DNA of 64,000 bases, from NCBI GenBank assembly GCA_946626905.1, contig CAMOVA010000001.1, positions 1,677 through 65,676 on the forward strand, read 5' to 3'. The notes below the pieces were generated by a model that searched no databases, was not told the origin of the DNA, and saw only the letters and a program-made list of their open reading frames with translations. The position numbers and the translations under genes were made by a program. Of this stretch, positions 3,513-47,883 are shown in pieces (within the stretch, counting starts at the first letter, position 1; the number at the start of each line of letters is the position of its first letter). The stretch is from an uncultured Bacillota bacterium. GTDB taxonomy: Bacteria > Bacillota_I > Bacilli_A > RF39 > UBA660.

Positions 3513-4289
3513 TTATAGAATCATTCTTTTGATATTGTCTAATCCATTTTTTTCTAATCTTGATATTTGAGCTTGCGATATTCCTAAAATATCTGCGAGT
3601 TCTAACTGTGTTTTACCAGTTATATATCTTTCAATTAAAATATATCTTTCTTTTTCTTTTAATTTTTTTAATGCTTCTTTTAAAGCAATTTTATAATCTA
3701 ATGAATAATAATTATTCTTTTTATCATCTAATTGATCTTCTAAATAAATGGTATCTCCACCATCATTATAGATTGGTTCAAACATACTTATGGGGCTTAC
3801 CATGGCATCTAATGCATTGGCAACTTCAAATTCTGTAATTCCTAAATATTTTGCAATTTCACTTGTAGTTGGTTCTTTTCCATATTTATTTGTCAATTCT
3901 TCTTTTAATTTCATTATTTTATATGCTATATCCTTAACACTCCTTGAAACTCTAATACTCCCAGAATCTCTTAAGTATCTTCTTATTTCTCCTAATATCA
4001 TTGGAACAGCATATGTTGAAAATTTAACATCATATTTTAAATCAAAATTATCAATTGCTTTAATTAAACCTATACACCCTATTTGAAACAAATCATCCAT
4101 ATTATCTACTCTAGTCTTATATTTTTTTAATATTGATAATACTAATTTTAAGTTTCCTTTTATTAATTCTTCTTTAGCTCTTTCATCTCCTCCTTGATAT
4201 TTTTTAAACAATTCTACCATTTCAGTATTTGTTAAAACTTTAATATTCGCAGTATTCACATTACAAATTTCTACTTTGAAACGTGACAT
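3513..4289 (-). CDS. sigG: sporulation sigma factor SigG (forespore late sigma)
   Basis: Starting at the internal Met, MSRFKVEICNVNTANIKVLTNTEM... aligns almost residue-for-residue with B. subtilis SigG (MSRNKVEICGVDTSKLPVLKNEEM..., DDLFQ.GCIGL.K.IDNFDL...KFSTYAVPMI.GEIRRYLRD, GISQAQ.SRLEK). The track ORF starts 5 codons upstream at a non-consensus position. Confidence 0.85.
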   Translation of the reverse strand: MSRFKVEICNVNTANIKVLTNTEMVELFKKYQGGDERAKEELIKGNLKLVLSILKKYKTRVDNMDDLFQIGCIGLIKAIDNFDLKYDVKFSTYAVPMILGEIRRYLRDSGSIRVSRSVKDIAYKIMKLKEELTNKYGKEPTTSEIAKYLGITEFEVANALDAMVSPISMFEPIYNDGGDTIYLEDQLDDKKNNYYSLDYKIALKEALKKLKEKERYILIERYITGKTQLELADILGISQAQISRLEKNGLDNIKRMIL

Positions 4290-6146: not shown

Positions 6147-8339
6147 TTATAAAAGTTTAAACTGTGAATTATATAATTCTGCATAAAAACCATTTTTTTC
6201 TATTAAACTATCATGTGTACCTTGCTCTATTATATTACCATCTTTCATAACTAAAATTAAATCTGCATTCTTTATGGTTGATAATCTATGAGCAATTATA
6301 AATGATGTTTTACCTTTTGTTAATTTATCCATAGCAGTAGCTACTAATTCTTCTGTTCTTGTATCAACATTAGATGTTGCTTCATCAAGTATCAAGAAAG
6401 GTGCATCTTCAAGCATACCACGAGCTATTGTAAGTAATTGTCTTTGTCCTGCTGAAATTGAATCATTATCTTTTATATTTGAATCATATCCTTTAGATAA
6501 TGTTTTAATGTAATGATCAACACCGACTTCCTTACAAACTTTATATATATCTGAGTCAGATACATTTTCTTTATTGAAAATAATATTTTCTTTTATTGTT
6601 CCATCAAATACCCAAGTATCTTGTAATACCATTGTAAATAGTTCATGAATATTTTCTCTTGATAATTCCTTAATAGATATATTATCTATTAAAATGTCTC
6701 CATCATTTATTTCATAAAATTTCATAAGTAAATTTACTAATGTTGTTTTTCCAGCTCCTGTAGGACCTACAATAGCTACTTTTTTACCTGGTTTTGCGAT
6801 TGCACTAAAATTATGAATTGTTGGTTTTTGATTTCCATCATATGTAAATGATATATTTTTAAATTCAATTGTTCCTTTAACATCTTTTTTATTTAATACT
6901 TTATATGACGATTCATTTTCTAATTCTTCTTCATCTAAAAATTCAAATACTCTTTCTGAAGCAGCAGCTGTTGCTTGAAGCTGTGTAAATGCTTGCCCTA
7001 TTTGTGAAAGAGGTGATGTGAATAATCTAACATAAGCCATGAATGCAACTATTACACCAAAACTTATTACATCATTCATTGTTAAAAGAGCTCCTACTAT
7101 ACAAACCATAACATATCCAAAGTTACCTATAAATCCCATTAATGGCATCATAAGACCTGATAAAAATTGACTTTTCATATTTGAATCATATAATTCTTCA
7201 TTAAGTTCATTAAATTTTTTCTTTGATTCTTCTGTACCATTATATACTTTTACCACATTTAAACTTGAATATATTTCTTCAATGTGTCCATTCAAATTTC
7301 CTAAACTTTCTTGTTTTTTTACAAAATATTTTTGTGATTTTGATAAGATTACTGCCATAAATATAAATCCAAATAATGTAGATACAATCGCAGTTATAGC
7401 CATTATATAATTAGTTATAAACATCATTATTATTGTTCCAAAGAACAATGTTACTGATGAGACTAATGTCGCTAATGAATGATTCATTGTAGATGCTATC
7501 ATATCTACATCATTAGTTACTCTTGATAATATATCACCTGATTTATGTTTATCAAAATATTTAAGTGGTAATTTATTGATTTTTCTTGATATAGTTTTTC
7601 TTAATCTTTTAGCAAATTTATTAGAAACTATTGTCATTATTATTTGTTCAATATAAGTAAATAATGCACTAAGTACATATAAACAAATTAACAACAGTGT
7701 AATTTGTTTTATTTTACTCATATTTATTTTTGGATCTATAACTTTTTTAACACTATTAGGCATTTTATCTAGTTGTTTATATATTTTTTTAGAATCCATA
7801 TCTTTACTAATTTTACTACTAATTAAAATATAATTAATTTGATCTTCAGAAGATATTTTTATACCATCTATTTTTATTTCTTCTAATAATATTTGTTTTA
7901 CACTATTTGGTATTTCTATATCTTTAAAATTTCTATTATTTAAATTTAAAAGAGTTTTTTGTAATTTTATTTTTTCTTCTTTTTTTATTAATTGACCTTT
8001 ATAAGTACTATCATTTTCTTCTTTTAATATATTTGTTATTGTTTTTTTAGTGCTATCACTATTTATATTTAACATTACTTCTTTTGTTAATTTTTCAGTA
8101 TTATTTGTATCAACTATTAAACCCTTTGTTATTTCATTTGTTAAATCTCTAAGTCTATTAGGAGATACTATTGATAATATAGCACCTAAAACAGCAAGTG
8201 AAAGTGAAATAATAATTGAAGTCTTATAAGAATCTAATTCTTTTATTAGTCTTTTAATTGAACCTTTAAAATCATTTGCTTTATCCCCTACGCCTTTCAT
8301 TGGTCCATGAGCTAAAGGAGTATTTTTTTTCTTACTCAT
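6147..8339 (-). CDS. ABC exporter, fused TMD-NBD half-transporter (heterodimer partner A), with an unusually long first extracellular loop
   Basis: 730 aa. Type-I exporter TMD followed by an NBD (GPTGAGKTT, LSAGQRQLLTIARG, ILDEATS). Roughly 150 low-complexity residues lie between TM1 and TM2. Confidence 0.85.
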   Translation of the reverse strand: MSKKKNTPLAHGPMKGVGDKANDFKGSIKRLIKELDSYKTSIIISLSLAVLGAILSIVSPNRLRDLTNEITKGLIVDTNNTEKLTKEVMLNINSDSTKKTITNILKEENDSTYKGQLIKKEEKIKLQKTLLNLNNRNFKDIEIPNSVKQILLEEIKIDGIKISSEDQINYILISSKISKDMDSKKIYKQLDKMPNSVKKVIDPKINMSKIKQITLLLICLYVLSALFTYIEQIIMTIVSNKFAKRLRKTISRKINKLPLKYFDKHKSGDILSRVTNDVDMIASTMNHSLATLVSSVTLFFGTIIMMFITNYIMAITAIVSTLFGFIFMAVILSKSQKYFVKKQESLGNLNGHIEEIYSSLNVVKVYNGTEESKKKFNELNEELYDSNMKSQFLSGLMMPLMGFIGNFGYVMVCIVGALLTMNDVISFGVIVAFMAYVRLFTSPLSQIGQAFTQLQATAAASERVFEFLDEEELENESSYKVLNKKDVKGTIEFKNISFTYDGNQKPTIHNFSAIAKPGKKVAIVGPTGAGKTTLVNLLMKFYEINDGDILIDNISIKELSRENIHELFTMVLQDTWVFDGTIKENIIFNKENVSDSDIYKVCKEVGVDHYIKTLSKGYDSNIKDNDSISAGQRQLLTIARGMLEDAPFLILDEATSNVDTRTEELVATAMDKLTKGKTSFIIAHRLSTIKNADLILVMKDGNIIEQGTHDSLIEKNGFYAELYNSQFKLL

Positions 8340-10089
8340 ATTCTAATTCCTCCTTTGATAATTGAGAAAAAGCAATTTGTTTATATACATCACATTTTTT
8401 CAATAATTCTTTATGTGTACCTATTCCTACTGCTTTACCATTTTCTAGAACTATTATTTTATCTGCATTCATAATAGTTCCAATTCTACCTGAAACTATT
8501 AAATTAGTTGCATTCTTAGTATATTTTTTTAATTCTGTTCTTAAAACATAATCTGTTTTATAATCAAGAGCACTAAATGAATCATCAAATATATATATTT
8601 CAGGTTTTCTTGCGATTGCACGCGCTATAGATATTCTTTGTTTTTGACCACCCGAAATATTAGTTCCACCACTTGAAATATGTGAGTTATATTTATGATC
8701 TAATTTTAAAACAAATTCTTCTGCTTGAGCAACTTTAATTGCTTCTTTAACAATACTCTCTGTATATTCTTTTCCATTATCACCATATGTAATATTTTCT
8801 TTTACAGTTCCATCAAAAATAACTGCTTTTTGAGGAACATATCCTATTTTATTATGAAGTGCTTCTAATTTATAATCTTTGATATTAATACCATCTATTA
8901 ATATTTCACCTTCTGTTACATCATAAAAACGTGGCACTAAATTAATTAATGTTGATTTACCACTACCTGTTGATCCAATAAATGCGATTGTCTCTCCTTC
9001 ATTTACTTTAAATGAAATATCTTCTATTACATAGTCAACCGCATCAGGATATTTAAATGAAACATTTTTAAATTCAATTGTTCCTTTTAAATCTGTATCA
9101 TCACTAAACTTACCATCTTTTATACTATTTTTTGTATCTAATACTTCATTAATACGTTTTGCAGATACACTTGCTCTTGGAAAAAAGATAAATATCATTG
9201 CTAACATTAAAAAAGACATAATTACTTGCATTGCATATGATGAGAATACAATCATATCACTAAATATTGATAATTTAAGTGATAATGTAGCTTCCTTTAT
9301 TAAATATGCTCCTATAAAATAAATGCTTAGTGTTAAAAAATACATAACTAAATACATAACTGGAGACATTACCGCAAATGATTTTTGTACAAACATTTGC
9401 TTACTTGTTAATTCATTATTTACTTTTCCAAATTTATCTTCCCAGAATTTTTCAGCATTAAATGCTCTAACTACTCTAATACCCGAAAGTTGTTCTCTAG
9501 TTACTCCATTCATCTTATCTGTTAATTTTTGTAACAACTTAAACTTTGGAACTACAATAAGTATTATTGTTGAAATTACTAACAACAAAATCATAACAGC
9601 TAAAGCTGTTGATAAACTCCATTCATAACTTTTATTAACTATTTTAGTTATAGCCCAAACAGCTGTTATAGGAGCTTTAATTAGTAACTGTAATCCCATT
9701 CCTATTAACATTTCTATTTGTGTAATATCATTAGTAGTTCTTGTTATTAAACTACTAACAGAAAAATCTTTTACTTCTCCTGTCGATAGTCCTAATACTT
9801 TCTTAAAAAGTTTCTTTCTTAATTTCAAAGAAAACTTAGAAGATAAAACTGCAATTACATATCCAACTATGACTGCAGTTACTAAACTACCAAATGCACA
9901 AAGCAACATAAACATACCATTATATAATATATCACCCATACTACTTCCTTCAGTTTGAACTAAAGTAGTAATTTCTGACATGTAATCTGGTATTTTTAAT
10001 TCTAACCACACTTGTATAAAAATACATATAAATATTATTACTACTGTTAACCACTCTTTAACAGAAAAATTTTTTAATAATCTTATCAA
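8332..10089 (-). CDS. ABC exporter, fused TMD-NBD half-transporter (heterodimer partner B)
   Basis: 585 aa. GSTGSGKST, ISGGQKQRISIARA, IFDDSFSALD. Overlaps the partner gene by 8 nt. Confidence 0.85.
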   Translation of the reverse strand: MIRLLKNFSVKEWLTVVIIFICIFIQVWLELKIPDYMSEITTLVQTEGSSMGDILYNGMFMLLCAFGSLVTAVIVGYVIAVLSSKFSLKLRKKLFKKVLGLSTGEVKDFSVSSLITRTTNDITQIEMLIGMGLQLLIKAPITAVWAITKIVNKSYEWSLSTALAVMILLLVISTIILIVVPKFKLLQKLTDKMNGVTREQLSGIRVVRAFNAEKFWEDKFGKVNNELTSKQMFVQKSFAVMSPVMYLVMYFLTLSIYFIGAYLIKEATLSLKLSIFSDMIVFSSYAMQVIMSFLMLAMIFIFFPRASVSAKRINEVLDTKNSIKDGKFSDDTDLKGTIEFKNVSFKYPDAVDYVIEDISFKVNEGETIAFIGSTGSGKSTLINLVPRFYDVTEGEILIDGINIKDYKLEALHNKIGYVPQKAVIFDGTVKENITYGDNGKEYTESIVKEAIKVAQAEEFVLKLDHKYNSHISSGGTNISGGQKQRISIARAIARKPEIYIFDDSFSALDYKTDYVLRTELKKYTKNATNLIVSGRIGTIMNADKIIVLENGKAVGIGTHKELLKKCDVYKQIAFSQLSKEELEYE

Positions 10090-10155
10090 ATTATCACCTT
10101 ACTAACATTATTCATTTTATCAAAATAACATATGTAAGTCAATTTAAATTATTAC

Positions 10156-10293
10156 TCATTTACTATAAACAACATTAGTGTTTGTATATTGATTATTATT
10201 TAATTTTTCAATTCCTTTTGAGTTTAAAACTATAATTCCCATTACTACTACTATGAATAAAATCATATATTTGTTACTTACCATTTCTAACAT
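10156..10293 (-). CDS. 45-aa single-TM peptide divergent from lexA; candidate SOS-induced cell-division inhibitor (SosA/YneA-like)
   Basis: Strong RBS AAAGGAGTG 7 nt before the ATG. Encodes MLEMVSNKYMILFIVVVMGIIVLNSKGIEKLNNNQYTNTNVVYSK. Its promoter carries a Cheo-type LexA box in the spacer. Below the 60-aa cut-off of the ORF track. Confidence 0.4.
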   Translation of the reverse strand: MLEMVSNKYMILFIVVVMGIIVLNSKGIEKLNNNQYTNTNVVYSK

Positions 10294-10317
10294 ACTATCA
10301 CTCCTTTTTCTATATTG

Positions 10318-10346
10318 ATTATATTACAAACACTTGTTCGTGTCAA
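10318..10346 (-). promoter_or_regulatory. sigmaA promoter (TTGACA-17-TATAAT) with a LexA box filling the spacer
   Basis: Minus strand reads TTGACA cgaacaagtgtttgtaa TATAAT. The spacer contains CGAACAAGTGTTTG (10327-10340), which matches the Firmicute LexA consensus CGAAC-N4-GTTYG. Confidence 0.55.
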
Positions 10347-10393
10347 TACAAAATACAAAAAAATGTTCGTACTTTACATTTGCGAACAAACAT

Positions 10394-10422
10394 TTGACAA
10401 ACAAACAGATGTATGGTATAAT
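10394..10422 (+). promoter_or_regulatory. lexA sigmaA promoter, TTGACA-17-TGgTATAAT (extended -10)
   Basis: Read directly: catTTGACAaacaaacagatgtatgGTATAATtttcc. A degenerate box CGAACAAACATTTG overlaps the -35. Confidence 0.55.
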
Positions 10423-10444
10423 TTTCCTATCGAGGAGGGATTTT

Positions 10445-11062
10445 ATGGCTGAGCTTACAAAGCGTCAAGATGAAATATTATCATATATAAAAAAGTATAT
10501 GGTAAAGCATGGATATCCACCTACTATAAGAGAAATTGGTAAAGCACTTGATCTATCAAGTCCTGCGACTATTCATGCACACATTAAAAATTTAGAGAAA
10601 AAAGGATTAATAAAAAAAGGAAGTTCAAAAAACAGAGCATTAGAATTATTAGTTGATAATGAATTTGCACATAAGGATGATTTAACTGTTGATGTACCAC
10701 TACTTGGTAAAATAACTGCGGGAAGCCCTATTGAGGCTATTGAACATCCTGATGAATATTTCTCATTGCCAACTTACTTAGTCCCTAAAAACAAAAAAGT
10801 ATTTACTTTAAATGTAAGTGGAACAAGTATGATTAATGCTGGTATATTAGATGGTGACATTGTTATTGTAGAACAAGCTAATACAGCACGCAACGGTGAA
10901 ATCGTAGTTGCTATGACAGATGAAAATGAAGTTACTTTAAAAACATTTTATAAAGAGGATAACTACTTTAGATTACAACCAGAAAACGATACAATGGAAC
11001 CTATTATTTTACAAAATGTTACTATTCTTGGTAAAGCCATCGGATTATATAGAAAAATATAA
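10445..11062 (+). CDS. lexA: LexA repressor
   Basis: RBS GAGGAGGG before the ATG. MAELTKRQDEILSYIKKYMVKHGYPPTIREIG... wHTH domain. Autocleavage site AG, then S-K peptidase domain (GTSM...K). Likely true start is inside the longer track ORF. Confidence 0.9.
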   Translation: MAELTKRQDEILSYIKKYMVKHGYPPTIREIGKALDLSSPATIHAHIKNLEKKGLIKKGSSKNRALELLVDNEFAHKDDLTVDVPLLGKITAGSPIEAIEHPDEYFSLPTYLVPKNKKVFTLNVSGTSMINAGILDGDIVIVEQANTARNGEIVVAMTDENEVTLKTFYKEDNYFRLQPENDTMEPIILQNVTILGKAIGLYRKI

Positions 11063-12679: not shown

Positions 12680-12943
12680 TTAATTATTTTTTATATATTT
12701 TTCTAACTCTTCTAATTTTTCTCCACGAAGTGGTCGACATTTTTTATAAGCTTCTAAATTTTTTAACATTTCTTTTGCCATACCAGCACATGATCCATAA
12801 CCACATGCTCCACAATTATAACCAGGCAATCTTTTTAAATATTCTTCTTCTTTTGGATTTGTTTTATTTATTTTATTATCAACAACTACTAATACTATTC
12901 CTAAAATAAGTGCGGTTAAAGTTATTATAAGTATTCCTATCAT
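12680..12943 (-). CDS. rnfB: minimal RnfB (membrane anchor plus first Cys cluster only, no ferredoxin domains)
   Basis: 87 aa: TM helix followed by LPGYNCGACGYGSCAGMAKE...C (C-x2-C-x4-C-x16-C), the RnfB N-terminal cluster. The protein ends there; the dagK-like gene follows after 37 nt. Confidence 0.6.
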   Translation of the reverse strand: MIGILIITLTALILGIVLVVVDNKINKTNPKEEEYLKRLPGYNCGACGYGSCAGMAKEMLKNLEAYKKCRPLRGEKLEELEKYIKNN

Positions 12944-13071
12944 TTTTTCATCTCCTTATATAAATTACATCCCATGCATTTATCACAATTATGGTCACAT
13001 TTATTTTTATTTGATAAATATAATGTTATAGCAAATAACACTATTATTAATAAAAATGGTACTATAATCAT
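12940..13071 (-). CDS. 43-aa micro-ORF: single TM plus a CxxxCxxCxxC tail, translationally coupled between rnfA and rnfB
   Basis: MIIVPFLLIIVLFAITLYLSNKNKCDHNCDKCMGCNLYKEMKK. Its ATG overlaps the rnfA stop (ATGA) and its TGA overlaps the rnfB ATG (ATGA). Resembles FeoB-associated Cys-rich membrane peptides. Confidence 0.4.
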   Translation of the reverse strand: MIIVPFLLIIVLFAITLYLSNKNKCDHNCDKCMGCNLYKEMKK

Positions 13072-27058: not shown

Positions 27059-27658
27059 TTATTTTTTTGGTTTGTAAACCAAATATATTATTTTTGTAGC
27101 TTCATATAAAATGGTATTTGCATTATTAATTGCATAGCTTTTACATAAAGCTTTTAACCCTATTATAATTGATGCTATTAAAGAAGTTATCAACAATGAT
27201 GTCATATATAAATTTAAGTCAAATGTACTTGAAAGTCCTGCTGATATTGTTACCCCTACTGTACCTGATACAACACCACAAATATCTCCTATTACATCAT
27301 TGCAAAATGAAGCAGTCTTATCAGCATTTTGTTTTAATTTTATTGCAAGTTTTGCTTCTTTTATTTTTCTTGCTGCCATTGAATTAAACGGAGTAATATC
27401 TGCTGCTGTAACAGCTACCCCAATCATATCAAATAAAACACCTATCACCACAAAAAAAACTAATATTAATAATTCTACCCATAGTGAAACATGTGGAATA
27501 GTTGATTCTGAAAAAGTAGCAAATAAAAAAGAAACTATAAAAGCTATTATTACTATTTTTAATATCCATACTTTATCAACATGTTCTTTATGTTTAGCAT
27601 TTTTTCTCTTAGTTTGTATTTTTAAATTTTTTAGTTCACTTGTTTTTTGTTTTTTCAT
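27059..27658 (-). CDS. small 4-TM membrane protein, OapA-like (OLE-associated protein A candidate); internal two-fold repeat with DMIG/DVIGD (DxxxD) motifs
   Basis: 199 aa, basic N-terminus, 4 predicted TM helices. Motifs LFDMIGVAVTAAD and NDVIGDICG. Directly downstream of the large structured RNA. Confidence 0.45.
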   Translation of the reverse strand: MKKQKTSELKNLKIQTKRKNAKHKEHVDKVWILKIVIIAFIVSFLFATFSESTIPHVSLWVELLILVFFVVIGVLFDMIGVAVTAADITPFNSMAARKIKEAKLAIKLKQNADKTASFCNDVIGDICGVVSGTVGVTISAGLSSTFDLNLYMTSLLITSLIASIIIGLKALCKSYAINNANTILYEATKIIYLVYKPKK

Positions 27659-27671
27659 CTTACCACCATAA

Positions 27672-28250
27672 TTATATGTGATGGCAAAAATATGGTTAAC
27701 TTTACGTCTTAGGTCAAGTAGAATTTCTCTAGTCTCTACAGTATGTTACCACGCTGCGGTTCCCCTTTAAAGAGACTAATATATTGTCACCAAATATATG
27801 ACTTGATTGCCACTTAGTACGTACTGCAATCCCATATTTTCACTCTAGAAGTTTTCCTCAACATTTTGTTTATTATTAATTCTCTTTTGCAAATATAATT
27901 TCATGAAGCAATAATCAATACCTTTTGGCCAAAAGATATTAATCTGTCATCAATTCCATATACTCACTCAAGACAAGCTACGCTACTCGTAAGTTTCCCC
28001 ACATAGTAGGTTCAAGCCTAAGTCGTCATAAGTCCGTCAACATACGTGTATAGGCTTATAACAAGTTTAGGTCTCCACGAAAGCTGGGTCAGAAATCGTA
28101 TGCCATTACGGTTGCCCAACAATCTAACCTTTCAGCACCCACCCAAATCTGGGCGAAATAAGCAAGCACCAAAAGTTTCACAGATATGCTCTTTAGTGGA
28201 TTTTTAGCCCCACCTTCATAATAAACTTAATGACTAGAATAGTGTGCCAT
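27672..28250 (-). ncRNA. large (about 580 nt) structured non-coding RNA, OLE-like candidate; unclassified
   Basis: No ORF of 60 aa or more in any frame. GC content visibly higher than the flanks. Many perfect hairpins: CUUUUGGCCAAAAG, CCCAGAUUUGGG, AAGCCUA...UAGGCUU, AGUCUCU...AGAGACU. Own promoter at 28258-28286. 3'-terminal hairpin CCAUCAC-auauaauuau-GUGGUGG contains the SD of the downstream gene. Confidence 0.5.
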
Positions 28251-28257
28251 CAAATAA

Positions 28258-28286
28258 ATTATATCAAAATAATTCTTCTAAGACAA
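28258..28286 (-). promoter_or_regulatory. sigmaA promoter of the large ncRNA, TTGTCT-17-TGaTATAAT (extended -10)
   Basis: Read on the minus strand directly downstream of the rpoC terminator. Confidence 0.5.
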
Positions 28287-39718: not shown

Positions 39719-41482
39719 TTATGTAAAGTTTTCTAATTCTTTTTTTAAATTAACAGCTACATTATGAGGAATAATTGTTTCTAATTCTTCTATTTCAGCA
39801 TTCTTTATGTTATTAATTGTTTTATATTTTTTAAGAAGTTCATTCTTTCTAGTTTTACCTATTCCCTCTATATTATCTAAAACAGATGATATAGCTCCTT
39901 TACTTCTTATTTGTTTATGATAATTGATAGTAAATTTATGAACTTCATCTTGCATTCTTTCTAGATAATAGAACAAATTACTTCTTTTATCTATTTTTAT
40001 TTCTTCATTTGAAGAAGTTATTAGTGCTTCTGTTGTATGTCTATTATCTTTTTTTAGTCCTACAACAGGTATTTTTAAATTTAAACTATCTAATACTTTT
40101 TTAGCTACATTTATTTGTCCAATACCACCATCTACTATTATTAGATCAGCTTTTTCTAAATTATCCATAAGTACTCTAAAATATCTTCTATAAATTACTT
40201 CTTTCATTGTAGCATAGTCATCGTTTTCATCAACTGATATTTTATATTTTCTATAATCATTTTTAGATGGTAATCCACTTTTAAATACAACCATTCCTGA
40301 AACATTATAAGTTCCAAATAAATGTGCATTATCAAATAGTTCTATTCTATCTAATTTATCTAGCGAAAGAACTTCTTTTAATTGTTCATTCGCTTGATAA
40401 GTTCTATCTTTATCTTTATTGATTAATTCATAATCATTTTCTATTTTTATTTTAGCATTTTCTATTGCCATATCCACTATTCTTTTTTTCATACCTTTTT
40501 GTGGAATCACAACTTTAGTATTTAAATATTCTTCTAATATTTTACTATCTACTACATTTGGTACCAATATTTCTTTTGGAACTAATACTTCTTTACTATA
40601 GAATGTTGCGATAAAACGAGTAAGTTCTTCATTAACATCATCAACAATTTCTAAAACTTTTGAAATCCTTCCTTGGATTCTACCATTTCTAATAAAGAAT
40701 ATTTGAACACTTAGATATCCTTTAAATTCATAATATCCTATAACATCTCTATCTACATTATCTACTTCTACTTTTTGCTTAGTTAATGTTATATTTATAT
40801 AATCAAGTAAATCTTTTATTTCTTTAGCGCGTTCAAATTCTAAATTATTTGAATACATTTCCATTTCTTTAGTAAGTTTATTACTAACATCAGATAAATT
40901 TCCTTTTAAAAATTCTATTATATCTTTCTCCATTTGTTTTATTTTATCTTGCTCTACTTCATTTACACAATATCCTAAACATTGTCCTATATGGTAATAA
41001 AGACATGGTTTTTTAGGATATGTGCGACATTTTCTTAAAGGATAAACTCTATTAAGTAAATTGACTACACTTCTAGCAGCTGTTACATTTGGATAAGGTC
41101 CATATAATCTATCTTTATTTTTCTTTTTACCTAAATGTCTTACAACTAAAAGTCTTGGTGATTTTTCATTTGTTAATTCTATGTACGGATATGATTTATC
41201 ATCACGAAGAAGTATATTATATTTTGGATCATATTTCTTTATCAAATTAATTTCAAGTATTAATGATTCTGTTTCGGATTCTACTACTATATATTCAAAA
41301 TCTACTATTTCACTAACAAGTTTAGCTGTTTTACCAGTGTGAATTCTATTAAAATACGAGGAAACTCTTCTTTTTAAATTTTTAGCTTTTCCAACATATA
41401 TAATCACACCATCTTTATTCTTCATTAAATAACATCCTGGTCTATTAGGAAGTATTTCTAATTTCTTCTTGATAAAATCCAT
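39719..41482 (-). CDS. uvrC: excinuclease ABC subunit C
   Basis: GIY-YIG N-terminus (PGCYLMKNKDGVIIYVGKAKNLKRR), UvrBC-binding region, RNase H-like endonuclease and HhH domains. Confidence 0.9.
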   Translation of the reverse strand: MDFIKKKLEILPNRPGCYLMKNKDGVIIYVGKAKNLKRRVSSYFNRIHTGKTAKLVSEIVDFEYIVVESETESLILEINLIKKYDPKYNILLRDDKSYPYIELTNEKSPRLLVVRHLGKKKNKDRLYGPYPNVTAARSVVNLLNRVYPLRKCRTYPKKPCLYYHIGQCLGYCVNEVEQDKIKQMEKDIIEFLKGNLSDVSNKLTKEMEMYSNNLEFERAKEIKDLLDYINITLTKQKVEVDNVDRDVIGYYEFKGYLSVQIFFIRNGRIQGRISKVLEIVDDVNEELTRFIATFYSKEVLVPKEILVPNVVDSKILEEYLNTKVVIPQKGMKKRIVDMAIENAKIKIENDYELINKDKDRTYQANEQLKEVLSLDKLDRIELFDNAHLFGTYNVSGMVVFKSGLPSKNDYRKYKISVDENDDYATMKEVIYRRYFRVLMDNLEKADLIIVDGGIGQINVAKKVLDSLNLKIPVVGLKKDNRHTTEALITSSNEEIKIDKRSNLFYYLERMQDEVHKFTINYHKQIRSKGAISSVLDNIEGIGKTRKNELLKKYKTINNIKNAEIEELETIIPHNVAVNLKKELENFT

Positions 41483-41543
41483 ACGCATCACCACTTATAT
41501 TATACCAAATATTTAAAAAATATGTTAAAATTAAATTGGTGAT

Positions 41544-42128: not shown

Positions 42129-43622
42129 TTATCTATATAATACCCAAGGGCTTAATCTAGTTCCACCTCTATATGGCATACCACCTTTATATACTTCAAA
42201 GTGTAAGTGTGGACCAGTAGCAGCTCCAGTTTGACCAACTCTACCTATTACTTGACCACGAGATACATTCATACCTGGACTTACAAGTTTTTTACTCATA
42301 TGTGCATATAAAGTATAGTATCCATTATTATGATTAATTAATAAACATATACCATAACTCCAATGACAATTAAATGAAGCAACCGTACCATTGTTAACCG
42401 CATATATAGGTGAACCATATCCTGTACCTGAAATATCAATACCAAAGTGAAGATTACGTCTTCTTGTATATGGATCAATACGATATCCATAATCAGAAGA
42501 AATTGTATAACCACTGTTTGTAGGCCATCCCCATGATTTAGTAGAACCTACACCAGATACTTGTTTTTGACCATAAACAATAATTCTATCAGTCGATGGT
42601 CTTAATTCTTTCTTACCAATTGGTTTTACATATGTAATTGTACCATTAGTAACCTCTACTTCTTGACTAATACGTTCTAGACCATTTTCACCCTTTTGAA
42701 TAACTTGATCATAACCAACTTGTCTAGATGCATCATAACGTTCAACCGTTTTAAATCTATTAACTTCATCTTTAACAACCGATTTTTCAATTACTACTTG
42801 AATTTGTGGGTCTGTCATACCAATAACAACGCTTTGACCTGGGAAAAGTAAACTTTTATCACTAGTAAATGATGGATTTGAAAGCAAAAATTCCTCCACA
42901 CTTATATGATTTTGATAAGCAACTGTAGAAATTGTATCTCCACTTTTAACAGTATAATTCTTTTTTTTGTTGTCCTTACCAAACAGTAAATATTGAGATA
43001 ATTCTTTTGAATCACTATATATTGTCTCAGTAACCGGAATATTCATTTTCTTAATTGTAATATCATCTTTTACATAAATATTATTAATATATGAACCTGT
43101 TGATATTATTTTTTGTTGAGTTTCATTTTTATATTTTTCATACTCTTCAATACCCGCATATGTTTTAAACATATTAACAACTGATTCATCAAATACATTT
43201 TTATCAGTAGTATAAACTACAATTTTTTTATTTGATTCTTTTTTCTTACCTTTTACTTTCGTATTAATAGTAAATTTATATCCTTTAACAGTAAAAGGTT
43301 TTAATTCTTGAATTTGATCATATATATCTTCAACAGAATCTAATTTACCATTATAAGTTAGTATTTTTTGTATAGAAATACCATTTGGCGAATAAACCTT
43401 ATTCACATTAAATTGTCTTTTATATACTTCATTATTTTTATCAATATATTCTTCTAACTCAGATTTTGATTTAACAACACCAAGCATATCACCATCTAAA
43501 TAAATTTCATAAAACTCATCAGGTTCTTTATTACTTTGATAAGAAGATGGTAATAAAATAGCTATAATAGCTACACTTAATAGAGTTAATAAACATATTA
43601 AAATTTCCTTTGTGTTTTTCAT
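42129..43622 (-). CDS. membrane-anchored M23 metallopeptidase with LysM domain
   Basis: LysM (YTVKSGDTISTVAY). C-terminal M23 HxxxD...HLHFE (GIDISGTGYGSPIYAV...GPHLHFEV). Confidence 0.75.
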   Translation of the reverse strand: MKNTKEILICLLTLLSVAIIAILLPSSYQSNKEPDEFYEIYLDGDMLGVVKSKSELEEYIDKNNEVYKRQFNVNKVYSPNGISIQKILTYNGKLDSVEDIYDQIQELKPFTVKGYKFTINTKVKGKKKESNKKIVVYTTDKNVFDESVVNMFKTYAGIEEYEKYKNETQQKIISTGSYINNIYVKDDITIKKMNIPVTETIYSDSKELSQYLLFGKDNKKKNYTVKSGDTISTVAYQNHISVEEFLLSNPSFTSDKSLLFPGQSVVIGMTDPQIQVVIEKSVVKDEVNRFKTVERYDASRQVGYDQVIQKGENGLERISQEVEVTNGTITYVKPIGKKELRPSTDRIIVYGQKQVSGVGSTKSWGWPTNSGYTISSDYGYRIDPYTRRRNLHFGIDISGTGYGSPIYAVNNGTVASFNCHWSYGICLLINHNNGYYTLYAHMSKKLVSPGMNVSRGQVIGRVGQTGAATGPHLHFEVYKGGMPYRGGTRLSPWVLYR

Positions 43623-43683: not shown

Positions 43684-43718
43684 AAAAGAACCTTTACATA
43701 TCAGGTTCTCCTTTTTTT
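43684..43718. terminator. bidirectional terminator after the cadherin-like surface-protein gene
   Basis: AGAACCT-ttacatatc-AGGTTCT flanked by A-run and T-run. Confidence 0.45.
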
Positions 43719-45142
43719 AACTTCTTTTTCTCTGCTTTTTCTTTTTTCTTTATTTCTTTTTGATTTTTCTTTTCTTGTGCTTTTGTTTTCTTTTCAATGT
43801 TTCTAATATCTCTTTTAGTTAATTCTTCCACGTCTTCAACACTTTTACCACGTCTAGTAAGTGAGATAGTTGTAATTAAGATAAGTAATCCAATAACACC
43901 TGCTAGAATTAAACCAAATTTTTGATATTTTTTAATTAATTCATTTTTAGATTTTACTTCTTCCTTATCATATAACTGAATAGTATTTTCTGAACTTTCA
44001 TATTTGTATATACCTTCTTTTCCAGTATCTGGATTAACTCCATAAACTAAACTATATTTTGATTTACTATTTAGTTTATATACAACATACTTAACATCAT
44101 TAATTACTTCTTCATATTTTTTATAACCACTAGGTATTTTTGATTTAGGAAAATCTAAATAAATTAAATTGAAATCTTTTACACTTAAAAACTTTAATAA
44201 ATGATATTCCATAGGTTTTTCATCATTTTTAAAAGATACAAATTTATAAAAATCAACTTTACCTTCAGAATCCTTTAAACCTATTAAAATATAACCTATT
44301 TTATCAAGACGATATGCATCAACTTCTTGTTCTTCTAAAGTCAATTTCATATCAGAATGTTCTATCTTAAGTTCAGGTAATTCATCCTTGTTTTTAACAA
44401 CTGAGTATTCCTTACCATCTACTTTAACAACAATTGGCTTTTTATCTACATTAACATTTAAAGATATAGTTTTTCTTGTACCATCTTCTGCAGTTACAAC
44501 AACATTAAATTTATTTTCACCTATTGTTACTTCTTTATCACCAATACCTGTTACTGTTTGTTTATCACTACTTCTAGATGTATAAATAGTTATTTTAGTT
44601 GTATCATAAGGTACAGTTAACGAATAAGAATTTGTATCATTATTAAATTCTGGAGTTATTTTATATCCCTTAACACCAAATTCTTCTAATTTAGTACTGC
44701 TTGATTTAGTTTTTTCTTTCTTAATAACGTTATTTGTAGAAGTGCCACCACCATTGTTGTTAGAAGATGATTTTTCAACTACAGTAACAGTTCTAGAACC
44801 TGATAAATTTTGTCTATTTAAGTTTTGATCAGTAGCATTACCTGATAAACTTACAGTAATATTACCAGTTCCTGTTGCTTTACATGAAACAGTATAGCTT
44901 TTTGAGCCATTATTACCACTTGGTGTAGTATCTGCAAAACTTCCTGAGCATCCACTTACTGGCCCTGATGCACTAATTCGTATACTCCATGATGCAACGC
45001 CACTAACACTTGCTGTTGCCGAAAAAGTAGAACCTACAGTAACTTTGCCAGAACTAGTTGATATATAACCAGATGCCAAAACTTTATTATTTGCTAGCGC
45101 AAATAAAGCCATTGTAAATACTAAATATTTTAGTTTTTTCAT
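43694..45142 (-). CDS. surface protein: signal peptide, Ser/Thr/Gly-rich Ig-like region, cadherin-like beta-sandwich domain, C-terminal TM and K/E-rich tail
   Basis: LEEFGVKGYKITPEFNNDTNSYSLTVPYDTTKITIY matches the cadherin-like (PF12733-type) domain common in clostridial surface proteins. Confidence 0.5.
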   Translation of the reverse strand: MKKLKYLVFTMALFALANNKVLASGYISTSSGKVTVGSTFSATASVSGVASWSIRISASGPVSGCSGSFADTTPSGNNGSKSYTVSCKATGTGNITVSLSGNATDQNLNRQNLSGSRTVTVVEKSSSNNNGGGTSTNNVIKKEKTKSSSTKLEEFGVKGYKITPEFNNDTNSYSLTVPYDTTKITIYTSRSSDKQTVTGIGDKEVTIGENKFNVVVTAEDGTRKTISLNVNVDKKPIVVKVDGKEYSVVKNKDELPELKIEHSDMKLTLEEQEVDAYRLDKIGYILIGLKDSEGKVDFYKFVSFKNDEKPMEYHLLKFLSVKDFNLIYLDFPKSKIPSGYKKYEEVINDVKYVVYKLNSKSKYSLVYGVNPDTGKEGIYKYESSENTIQLYDKEEVKSKNELIKKYQKFGLILAGVIGLLILITTISLTRRGKSVEDVEELTKRDIRNIEKKTKAQEKKNQKEIKKKEKAEKKKLKKGEPDM

Positions 45143-45152
45143 AATACACCTC

Positions 45153-46511
45153 CTATGAAATCTTTCTAGTTCCAACTAAATGTTGTTTTACCATTAATAA
45201 ATCTATTGAATCTATTGTTCCATCTTTATTAATATCAGATGCAGTCATTGAATTACCTGATAATTTTCTTGAACCAACTAGATGTTGTTTTACCATTAAT
45301 AAATCTATTGAATCTATTGTTCCGTCACTATTGATATCACCTATTTTAACATTGCCACTACTTGATGTAGATGCTCCTGTATTAGGTGCTCCTGTAAATA
45401 TTGGAATGTAGAATATATATTTAAAATTCTTACCAATATAATTTATATTTGAATTATATGTTGTAACTGATTCTGTATATGGTGCTTGTATATTTTGCAT
45501 ATATTGATGACCACCTAAATTTGGACCATATGGATCCCATTTTTGTAAGTAATTTGTCATTTGACCTTTTACATTATATGTGTCATTTGCTCCAATATAT
45601 CCTTTATACATAAATTTTGCTGCACCTTCTATTGATAAATATGGTGAAGTCCAATTGTATCCATTACATAATTTAGTTCCTTTAGAACTTGTTAGTGTAC
45701 CAGCAGCACATTTTATACCATTTGAAATTACTTCACTATTACTAGATCCAGTAGCTTGAATATTGAATAAATTGTAATATTTTGTACAATTTGCTTCTTC
45801 TTTTAAACATTTTCCAGCAGCTAAAGCTTCTGTCCCTCTTGGATTTTCTTGTCTTAAACGAGAAGCAAGCATATAAGCACTAACATTAGTTTTTTTAGCT
45901 ATTTCTAATATTGCTTGAGCATAAGTTTTGCCATTTGATCCAGGACATTCTTTATTCTTATATGCATCTGATAGTATACCATTAACCCCAGCTTCTGTTT
46001 CTGATGGATTATAGTATTGTGACTGAAACATAAATACATGTTTTTCATCTAAGAAATTATATGGATTCATATAATGTTCTATTGCTGCTTTTGTTGCATA
46101 ATACCATGTTTTTTCAGCATTATAGGCTTTACCTTTATAATTAGCTGGAGCTGTATGCCATATTAAACTTTCATCTCCTGTTTCTGCTTTTACCATATCA
46201 TTCCATGCAACTGGAATTTCTGTATAAAAATATTTTTTATTCGCTTCTTTCCATTTTGTACATTCACTTTTACTTAAACCAGATGGACATACTCCCCATA
46301 ATAAGAATTTATCTTGTTTTACAAATACTGCATTTGGATATATTTTATGTAATTCTTTTATTTTTTCTTGATATTGTGCTGGAAATTTAGCAAGTTCTGC
46401 TTCATAACTTCCAACTTGGCTATCAGAATATACGGCTTTTACCTTGTTTACAAAGCAAAAAGAGATGATGAAAATACATATATAACATAATATATTTAAT
46501 TGTTTTTTCAT
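45153..46511 (-). CDS. secreted GH73-like N-acetylglucosaminidase with C-terminal type-I dockerin
   Basis: Signal peptide. Central region with RLRQENPRG...YNLFNI (compare GH73 E...NNLFGI). C-terminus has two dockerin Ca-binding repeats, GDINSDGTIDSIDLLMVKQHLVG and SDINKDGTIDSIDLLMVKQHLVG. Confidence 0.6.
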   Translation of the reverse strand: MKKQLNILCYICIFIISFCFVNKVKAVYSDSQVGSYEAELAKFPAQYQEKIKELHKIYPNAVFVKQDKFLLWGVCPSGLSKSECTKWKEANKKYFYTEIPVAWNDMVKAETGDESLIWHTAPANYKGKAYNAEKTWYYATKAAIEHYMNPYNFLDEKHVFMFQSQYYNPSETEAGVNGILSDAYKNKECPGSNGKTYAQAILEIAKKTNVSAYMLASRLRQENPRGTEALAAGKCLKEEANCTKYYNLFNIQATGSSNSEVISNGIKCAAGTLTSSKGTKLCNGYNWTSPYLSIEGAAKFMYKGYIGANDTYNVKGQMTNYLQKWDPYGPNLGGHQYMQNIQAPYTESVTTYNSNINYIGKNFKYIFYIPIFTGAPNTGASTSSSGNVKIGDINSDGTIDSIDLLMVKQHLVGSRKLSGNSMTASDINKDGTIDSIDLLMVKQHLVGTRKIS

Positions 46512-46611
46512 AAAATCACCTCTTTCTAGATTTACATTAATTATATCAAATAATGCTTTTAATGTATAGGAATGATGCTTATTTTGCTTACTTGTTTACA
46601 CTATTTTACAT

Positions 46612-47883
46612 TTAATTTTTTCTTTTCAAATACGACAATAAATAAAGAATTCCTATAAAAGATGAATAACTAAGTATTATAAAAATATATACTTTTATAT
46701 CACTTGTCTTTGGATTATCAGGTATATCATTTTTTATGTTTAAAATAGGTATTTCTTCTTTATTATCTAATGATATTTCTTCTTTTTTTATTTCTAATGG
46801 GGTTTCTTCTTTTTGTTCTGTTTTAATTATCTTTTTTTCTTTTATTTTTTCATTAGTTAATTCTATTTCTTGATTATCTGAATTTATATCTACTTCATGC
46901 ATTTCTAAATCTATTTTATAGCCATCTTTAGCTTCTTTTTCTTTTATATAATATTTATCATATAACAATCTATCAAAAAGTGCTTCTCCACTTAAATCAG
47001 TAGCTTTTGTAGATAAGAGTGAATTGTTTTTGTCATATAATTCAAAAACAACATTTTCTAATGGTTCTTTAGTTTCTGAATCTATTTTTTTAACTGTTAG
47101 TTTCCCATTAATAACATTAATATCAATTTTATAATTAAGTGTTTTTAAGTTGCCTGGCAACAATAAATTTTGTCCTTTTGAAGCTTTAAAATATGTACTA
47201 TAATCTGAATATAAATTGTATTTTTTATTTAAATTTAAAGTGTATTTACCTTCCATTTTAGTTTCAATATTTAGTTTGTTATTATTTATATTCGCATTTA
47301 TATCATTTGCTTTTTCTACCTCATATTCTTTTAATACATTATTTTTATCATCAACAGATATAGTACTTTCAGGCAAAAGATCAGGCACTTCAATACTTGG
47401 TAATATATCAGAATTTTTCACTAAATTTTCAAGTTCATTAATTTCATCTGTATATTTAACAACTCTATTTCCATCAAACTTATCTGTAAAAAATATATCC
47501 ATATTAGGTTCTACTGTTTTCCATATCATAAATTGTGTTATCGCATACCACTTATTAGTTGTATGATTTTTATATCCATAGCCATAATAAGCAAGTTTTT
47601 CAATTCTATTTAATTGATAATTAGATAAATTAATATTTGTAGATTTAGTATAAACTTCATCTTCATATAATCTAACTCTTGGGCTTATACAATAAGTTGC
47701 TTTATTATCAGATTTTCTTCTAATAAATCTCATTAATTGTGGTTTGGAAAAATCCCCTTCTTTTAAATTTGCATATATACCACTTATCCAATTATCTTCA
47801 TAAAAATAATCAGCTTTTACAGAATTAATTCTAATAACAGTTACAAACAATACAAGTAAACATATTTTTATTGTTTTTTTCAT
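46612..47883 (-). CDS. cell-surface adhesin candidate: possible thioester domain (YC... / TQxxIW), CnaB/SpaA-like domain, NPKTS plus TM plus KRKN sorting signal
   Basis: Motifs ATYCISP (Cys65) and YAITQFMIW (Gln117). VVFELYDKNN...GYK CnaB-like fold. C-terminal NPKTSD-hydrophobic-KRKN resembles sortase-B-type signals (NPKTG/NPQTN/NPKSS). Confidence 0.45.
   Translation of the reverse strand: MKKTIKICLLVLFVTVIRINSVKADYFYEDNWISGIYANLKEGDFSKPQLMRFIRRKSDNKATYCISPRVRLYEDEVYTKSTNINLSNYQLNRIEKLAYYGYGYKNHTTNKWYAITQFMIWKTVEPNMDIFFTDKFDGNRVVKYTDEINELENLVKNSDILPSIEVPDLLPESTISVDDKNNVLKEYEVEKANDINANINNNKLNIETKMEGKYTLNLNKKYNLYSDYSTYFKASKGQNLLLPGNLKTLNYKIDINVINGKLTVKKIDSETKEPLENVVFELYDKNNSLLSTKATDLSGEALFDRLLYDKYYIKEKEAKDGYKIDLEMHEVDINSDNQEIELTNEKIKEKKIIKTEQKEETPLEIKKEEISLDNKEEIPILNIKNDIPDNPKTSDIKVYIFIILSYSSFIGILYLLSYLKRKN

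Follow-up and report, generated by a model that had tools for sequence, protein, structure and literature searches.

In an uncultured gut Bacilli genome, lexA is paired divergently with a micro-ORF for a 45-aa peptide with one membrane helix, and we find that this micro-ORF is a real protein-coding gene under purifying selection, conserved beside lexA across related genomes. The gene is most likely LexA-repressed and monocistronic in type, with a small bitopic membrane protein as its predicted product. We regard it as probably a much reduced and so far undescribed form of the damage-induced cell-division brake of Bacillus.

A LexA box fills the spacer of a perfect promoter divergent from lexA

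The window, by which we mean the whole 64-kb stretch of DNA analyzed here, is very AT-rich, and the GC content of the host genome is ~27%. Its closest relatives are MAGs from human and animal guts, which are labelled uncultured Bacilli, Bacillales, or "Tenericutes" or carry the names Candidatus Coprosoma, Pelethosoma, Scybalousia, and Faecimonas. The gene divergent from the micro-ORF is a bona fide lexA (Table 1), and its translation visibly retains an Ala-Gly cleavage site in ITAGSP as well as the catalytic pair, a serine in GTSM and a lysine in LKTF. Upstream of lexA, an intergenic region of 151 nt holds two back-to-back perfect sigma-70 promoters, one for each gene. Perfect TTGACA-N17-TATAAT sequences occur four times in the 64 kb compared to 0.11 expected, and the micro-ORF and lexA promoters account for two of the four.

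An earlier note on this DNA had described the micro-ORF promoter as a perfect TTGACA-17-TATAAT with a Cheo box in its spacer, and our analysis confirmed this: the promoter scores 12/12, its 17-nt spacer is CGAACAAGTGTTTGTAA, and the box is the sole exact CGAACN4GTTYG in the 64-kb window, where 0.01 would be expected. The proposed geometry, in which LexA would occlude RNA polymerase, was likewise upheld by the relatives. The consensus of 54 related promoters is TTGACA-CGAAcAaaTgTtcG-tgt-TAtaaT, with the box at spacer positions 1-14 in every one of them, and the same motif sits on the -35 of lexA (consensus aAACAnttGTTTGAC across 81 aligned sequences). Since the operator lies within the core promoter, LexA bound there would have to exclude RNA polymerase. 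LexA of B. subtilis bound Cheo boxes of metagenomic origin in an earlier study (PMC3998124). Autoregulation of lexA through this motif is likewise predicted, with a box on its own -35 as expected for an autoregulated repressor. The degenerate box between the two promoters is specific to the window, and most relatives have two boxes only. Two ORFs in this region, at 10315..10452(+) and 10324..10404(-), are spurious and were set aside; both lie across the promoters.

The Shine-Dalgarno sequence of the micro-ORF is unpaired in the predicted mRNA fold, which is no better than that of shuffled sequence (z = +0.64). Given a promoter of consensus strength, a short leader, and a strong RBS, derepression should give an immediate burst of expression.

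Table 1. Features in and around the lexA/micro-ORF intergenic region (window coordinates)
Feature	Position	Strand	Remarks
lexA	10445-11062	+	205 aa; LexA_DNA_bind and Peptidase_S24 (Pfam); TIGR00498, E = 3e-69
lexA promoter	10394-10422	+	TTGACA, 17 nt, (TG)TATAAT
Degenerate LexA box 3	10383-10396	+	CGAACAAACATTTG; 8/10 matches; overlaps -35 of lexA promoter
Degenerate LexA box 2	10356-10369	.	CAAAAAAATGTTCG on plus strand; 8/10 matches; between both promoters
Micro-ORF promoter, -35	10346-10341	-	TTGACA; invariant in 54/54 relatives
LexA (Cheo) box 1	10327-10340	-	CGAACAAGTGTTTG; occupies spacer positions 1-14 of 17
Micro-ORF promoter, -10	10323-10318	-	TATAAT; consensus of relatives TAtaaT
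Shine-Dalgarno sequence	10306-10301	-	AAGGAG; 7 nt before ATG at 10293
Micro-ORF CDS	10293..10156	-	45 aa + stop; MLEMVSNKYMILFIVVVMGIIVLNSKGIEKLNNNQYTNTNVVYSK
Separate sigma-70-like promoter	10114-10142	-	TTGACT, 17 nt, TG, TAAAAT; between micro-ORF stop and ABC exporter gene 10089..8332

The micro-ORF is a conserved protein-coding gene

For comparison, we took the lexA loci of 80 further species-level genomes, whose LexA proteins are 65-83% identical. The earlier note had suggested looking for homologous micro-ORFs divergent from lexA in related genomes, and this search found the micro-ORF beside lexA in 65 of the 80 loci; about 14 are without it. Sixty loci have a 32-64-aa ORF with an RBS behind a promoter of identical design. 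Where the ORF directly follows the promoter, its start lies 18-32 nt past the -10, with just two exceptions. In L028, L030, L031, and L033, the same ORF is the second gene and has a start-stop overlap with a 60-62-aa non-membrane ORF, while L052 has the micro-ORF with a variant promoter and L047 a truncated copy of it. Three loci without the micro-ORF (L057, L061, and L078) have polA directly facing lexA, and these also lack the SOS-box promoter.

Over the first 40 codons, the micro-ORF frame is open in 58/61 loci, compared to 0/61 for either of the other two frames (396 and 262 stops). Values of dN/dS range from 0.11 to 0.59, with a pooled pN of 0.19 against a pS of 0.51 (Nei-Gojobori, 24 pairs at 55-87% identity), and protein features persist among relatives as the nucleotide sequence diverges. 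The claim that the promoter serves a real small membrane peptide with a strong RBS is thus borne out by the conservation of frame, length, RBS, and TM helix in 65/80 loci together with these dN/dS values. Loss of the frame where the promoter is kept had been proposed as a sign of an sRNA; the frame is conserved, and the sRNA reading is rejected. One claim needs correcting, since the ORF had been called unannotated and exactly this 45-aa product is already called as a gene, unnamed, on 21 public contigs.

The 60-62-aa ORF (MEYYTINDIQILTGY..., at ~3665-3851(-) in L028), which lies between the LexA-box promoter and the micro-ORF in the four loci that have it, is of note in its own right. It has no Pfam match and weak excisionase-like matches in PHROGs (E = 0.003-0.06), and its product is predicted to be an SOS-controlled small HTH-like protein.

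The products form a new family of minimal single-helix membrane peptides

The window peptide has one hydrophobic helix (Kyte-Doolittle 2.5), with the TM segment at about residues 9-26 (about nt 10216-10269), followed by a polar tail of ~20 aa that is predicted to lie outside the cell. AF2 with the family alignment returns a single helix, with a pLDDT of 91 over residues 11-20 and low confidence beyond residue 30. The family shares this layout: the N-terminus is basic, a single TM helix follows, and ~20 aa of acidic or polar character form the tail. Every member has one strongly hydrophobic segment (Kyte-Doolittle >1.8 in all), and the mean net charge is +2.9 on the N-side and -1.9 on the C-side. 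The N-side exceeds the C-side in 61/61, so an N-in/C-out topology is predicted.

Conservation is concentrated in three parts. The basic N-terminus reads MKE.LK.K or MKK.LKK, and next to the membrane lies the motif (N/D)-R-(I/F)-x-x-L-(E/N), which takes the form IEKLN in the window peptide. The third part, found in 55 of 66 members, is a motif of alternating hydrophobic residues just short of the C-terminus. The window peptide is not typical of the family, in that its N-side carries a net charge of just +1 and K-G replaces the juxtamembrane R of many relatives.

The window peptide found no match in Pfam (E<=1), NCBIfam, or PHROGs, and 54 family members searched against the same three collections gave only scattered chance matches to TM segments. 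As the earlier note had noticed, the peptide is without a LysM domain, and no Pfam family matches it even at E<=1. A word-indexed profile search of 5.8 billion proteins returned 72 relatives, none with a Pfam domain and all named "hypothetical protein". An exhaustive HMMER profile search of 1.84 billion representatives returned 146 clusters (50% identity level) at E<=1e-3. These are 33-83 aa long except for three long repetitive proteins, and the longer ones that we inspected are mis-called starts or read-throughs. We found no LysM or other added domain in the 146 family representatives. The micro-ORF product therefore represents a new sequence family with a minimal 45-aa architecture and, within the reach of these profile searches, no homology to the known inhibitors. 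The family is widespread in the uncultured gut Bacilli clade.

The lexA/micro-ORF pair is a conserved unit in the yneA slot

The gene downstream of the micro-ORF is tkt (transketolase) in 23 loci, polA (DNA polymerase I) in 15, an MGDG-synthase-like glycosyltransferase gene in 4, and assorted others elsewhere. In the window genome only, a heterodimeric ABC exporter pair (8332-10089 and 6147-8339, minus strand) is found downstream, in place of tkt-sirA-yneF. On contigs that we retrieved via family members alone, lexA is immediately upstream wherever the contig is long enough (L090-L092; L093 probably has a cut lexA). Downstream neighbors thus change from locus to locus whereas lexA stays, which marks the lexA/micro-ORF pair as the unit that is conserved. 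A functional link between the micro-ORF and the ABC exporter was rejected because the exporter is unique to the window genome.

The earlier note had placed the peptide gene in the position of yneA and sosA, divergent from lexA, and the relatives give this claim stronger support than it had at first. In L091 (3192-5834), lexA is divergent from a run of micro-ORF, tkt, a SirA gene (PF10747), and a UPF0154 gene (PF03672). The order in B. subtilis, which we take to be lexA / yneA-yneB-ynzC / tkt / sirA(yneE) / yneF, matches it, which places the micro-ORF in the ancestral yneA slot. Of the B. subtilis partner genes, ynzC corresponds to BSU17880 (PMC3814617); neither yneB nor ynzC has a counterpart in the window.

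No terminator is predicted between the micro-ORF and the ABC exporter gene in the window, so SOS read-through into the exporter is possible, and the exporter gene is also preceded by a promoter of its own (Table 1). A terminator scan 3' of the micro-ORF found mostly weak AT hairpins, with convincing terminators in only ~8 loci. Transcription from the micro-ORF promoter may thus extend into tkt, polA, or, in the window, the ABC exporter.

Several neighborhoods are worth recording separately. In L035, L037, L039, and 12 other loci, polA follows ~30-160 nt downstream on the same strand, usually without a convincing terminator, and in those genomes polA may be SOS-inducible by read-through. In another sub-lineage (L089:324-629, L090:2242-2547, and L093:614-931), the micro-ORF overlaps the start of a 101-105-aa ORF without a Pfam family, which is followed by a SirA-domain gene, and the three may form an SOS operon. 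The presence of SpoVS and SirA indicates that sporulation-linked genes are kept in these reduced gut Bacilli. Directly downstream of lexA in L090 (107-1261) is a reverse-transcriptase (RVT_1) gene, which may belong to a group II intron or a retron.

The peptide is a candidate SOS-induced division inhibitor

The characterized Gram-positive SOS division inhibitors are all lexA-adjacent, have a single TM helix and an extracellular C-terminus, and show little homology to one another (PMC6851548). The TM helix of YneA binds TM7 of FtsW, and the same is predicted for SosA, ChiZ, and SidA (29 aa); FtsW is now considered a common target of the small membrane proteins by which the SOS response stalls division (PMC13396833). 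The micro-ORF shares the divergent, lexA-adjacent position of the functional class of YneA, SosA, DivS, and ChiZ, and its product is predicted to share the single N-terminal TM helix and the outward C-terminus. From this position and architecture, we favor with moderate confidence the reading that the peptide is an SOS-induced division inhibitor of the SosA/SidA kind.

In an undamaged cell, a LexA dimer on the spacer-filling box would exclude RNA polymerase from the -35 and -10, and the second box, in the window also the third, would serve to repress lexA itself. Upon DNA damage, RecA-stimulated self-cleavage of LexA would free the perfect-consensus promoter, and the short-leader mRNA with its strong RBS would yield a burst of the 45-aa peptide, which would insert N-in/C-out. 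Most likely, the TM helix would then dock on a septal peptidoglycan synthase (an FtsW-type target), and the conserved juxtamembrane and C-terminal motifs of the ectodomain would delay division until repair is complete. As LexA re-accumulates, the peptide would be removed, possibly by a C-terminal protease. The organism clearly makes peptidoglycan, as it has FemAB, a Mur ligase, a GH25 muramidase, and an M23-LysM-G5 protein, and we infer that a conventional septal synthase is to be expected as a target.

Several features count against a division inhibitor. The peptide is without a LysM domain and is predicted to have just ~20 extracellular residues, the window peptide is atypical in its N-side charge and juxtamembrane residues, about 14 of the 80 related genomes are without the gene beside lexA, most loci have no convincing terminator after it, and the AF2 model is of low confidence past residue 30. 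[quoted passage not shown] Since the TM domain of YneA localizes without inhibiting, any inhibition by the peptide would have to be of the SosA/SidA type, via its short conserved ectodomain, and not of the YneA/LysM type.

Other roles and a membrane toxin are less well supported

In a different role, an SOS-induced membrane peptide might modulate a membrane protease, envelope synthesis, or a neighboring transporter, or serve one of these as an adaptor, or it might be linked to sporulation or replication via the nearby sirA. This would fit the many loci in which no terminator separates the micro-ORF from downstream genes, as well as the operons of small proteins in some lineages, with a 62-aa MEYYT.. 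ORF upstream or the 101-105-aa ORF and then SirA downstream. However, the downstream partner is inconstant and the pairing with lexA alone is constant, so a dedicated partnership with any one partner is improbable, and we consider another role of this kind unlikely overall.

The main rival of a division inhibitor is a small toxin in the manner of TisB and DinQ, induced in the SOS response, which would depolarize or permeabilize the membrane and cause growth arrest or persistence, leaving the divisome untouched. The peptide, being hydrophobic, ~45 aa long, and predicted to be under LexA control, with one TM helix, does resemble TisB (29 aa) and DinQ (27 aa), the E. coli type I toxins, which are likewise LexA-repressed, single-TM, and under 50 aa (PMC3567139). 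The peptide also has no domain that would imply a specific target, and its AF2 model is a single helix. On the other hand, TisB and DinQ come with sRNA antitoxins and long processed leaders, neither of which is evident for the micro-ORF, and their genes are not lexA-adjacent. An Rfam search of 9900-10600 gave no antisense or antitoxin RNA (only noise, E>1), although a trans-encoded sRNA could lie elsewhere, and plus-strand promoter-like sites are weak, at the level of shuffled sequence. In most loci, the next gene begins after a mere 30-66 nt of unconserved sequence, too little to accommodate a convergent sRNA gene. With its ~11-25 nt and unpaired SD, the leader differs from those of tisB and dinQ, which are long, structured, and processed. 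The polar ectodomain, with its juxtamembrane and C-terminal motifs, is under purifying selection, which suggests a specific partner, and the fixed adjacency to lexA and the synteny of the yneA slot fit division inhibitors rather than known SOS toxins. We therefore regard a toxin as quite unlikely, and the division inhibitor is favored over it because of the missing long or structured leader, the lack of room for a convergent antisense gene, and the conserved ectodomain.

That the locus holds no protein gene at all, and that the promoter instead makes a LexA-controlled sRNA or the ORF arose by chance or serves the next gene as a leader peptide, might be suspected from an ORF so small and without a database family but is highly improbable and effectively refuted by the comparative data: a single frame stays open at ~27% GC, dN/dS is well below 1, the RBS/start spacing, TM helix, and charge asymmetry are conserved, the RNA folds no better than shuffled sequence, and the variable downstream gene excludes a leader peptide.

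Comparison with known SOS division inhibitors

SosA, the division inhibitor of S. aureus (77 aa), has its TM helix at aa 10-30, an extracellular C-terminus, and no LysM domain, and its conserved stretches lie just outside the membrane and at the very C-terminal end (PMC6851548). This pattern is also that of the new family. The two differ in length (77 compared to 45 aa), in ectodomain (~47 compared to ~20 aa), and in host lineage, that of the micro-ORF being uncultured gut Bacilli. The family profile search of 1.84 billion representatives, which returned 33-83-aa members of the family itself and no staphylococcal relatives of the 77-aa type, revealed no sequence relationship to SosA.

YneA of B. 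subtilis and Listeria (NF010723) occupies the same slot, divergent from lexA, and the intergenic region between the two genes likewise contains LexA boxes. Its TM helix is N-terminal and comes after a K/E-containing N-terminus, in which K5 and E6 are essential (PMC13396833), and the consensus of the new family begins with MKE..K.K. YneA is 105 aa compared to 45 aa, however, and needs its LysM domain for activity, whereas the micro-ORF product has none; its tail of ~20 aa is shorter than the 43-aa LysM model. The window peptide has no match to NF010723, and among 54 members a single one reaches E = 0.02, which is at chance level and far below the cut-off. With neither a LysM domain nor an NF010723 match, the peptide is not a member of the YneA family (NF010723 / PRK14125).

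SidA of Caulobacter crescentus (29 aa), an SOS-induced inhibitor of FtsW/FtsN, is likewise a minimal single-TM peptide without an accessory domain, and it demonstrates that so few residues suffice for a block of late division (PMC6851548, PMC13396833). It differs in coming from a Gram-negative alphaproteobacterium, in not being lexA-adjacent, and in having no homology to the micro-ORF product. The latter is shorter than any characterized Gram-positive inhibitor, and by inference it would work like YneA, SosA, and SidA.

A bolder reading, to which we give slightly less than an even chance, is that the family is the smallest known Gram-positive SOS checkpoint effector, a positional descendant or replacement of yneA without LysM, in which a TM helix and a conserved ectodomain of ~20 residues would be enough to shut down an FtsW-type septal synthase across an order-level clade of uncultured gut Bacilli with at least 146 clusters (50% identity level). 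A 45-aa family with more than 60 diverged sequences and clear motifs can be brought to bear on how such inhibitors stall division without LysM. These sequences form a compact set of variants for structure prediction, two-hybrid assays, and peptide design aimed at the inhibition of SEDS polymerases. The family would also supply the missing "cell-cycle" arm of the SOS regulon for abundant uncultured gut Bacilli, and its recovery illustrates that micro-ORFs below the customary cut-offs of annotation can be found from the logic of operator and synteny. No concept is overturned, since the arrangement is the expected one for Firmicutes, and the value of the finding lies in the minimal family and its motifs.

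Other features of the window

We found no LexA box upstream of uvrC (39719-41494). Nearby, the M23-LysM-G5 peptidase gene (42129-43622) adjoins a surface-protein gene cluster at 43694-47883(-), which encodes a cadherin-like domain, a type I dockerin, and an adhesin with thioester (TED) and SpaA-fold domains. In the Rnf operon, the RnfB-like function is apparently split into two ORFs. The first, at 12940-13071(-), is a 43-aa micro-ORF with a TM segment and a Cys-rich part (MIIVPFLLIIVLFAITLYLSNKNKCDHNCDKCMGCNLYKEMKK), and the second, at 12680-12943(-), encodes an 87-aa protein with an FeS domain (PF04060); an extra 29-aa gene is called between rnfD/G and rnfE. Finally, the window holds a full-length OLE (Ornate Large Extremophilic) RNA at 27665-28266(-) (RF01071, 402.9 bits, model positions 1-616), a notable presence in a gut Bacilli MAG. 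It is followed by an ORF for a 199-aa membrane protein at 27059-27658(-), which has a weak CNNM-like TM match and may be oapA.
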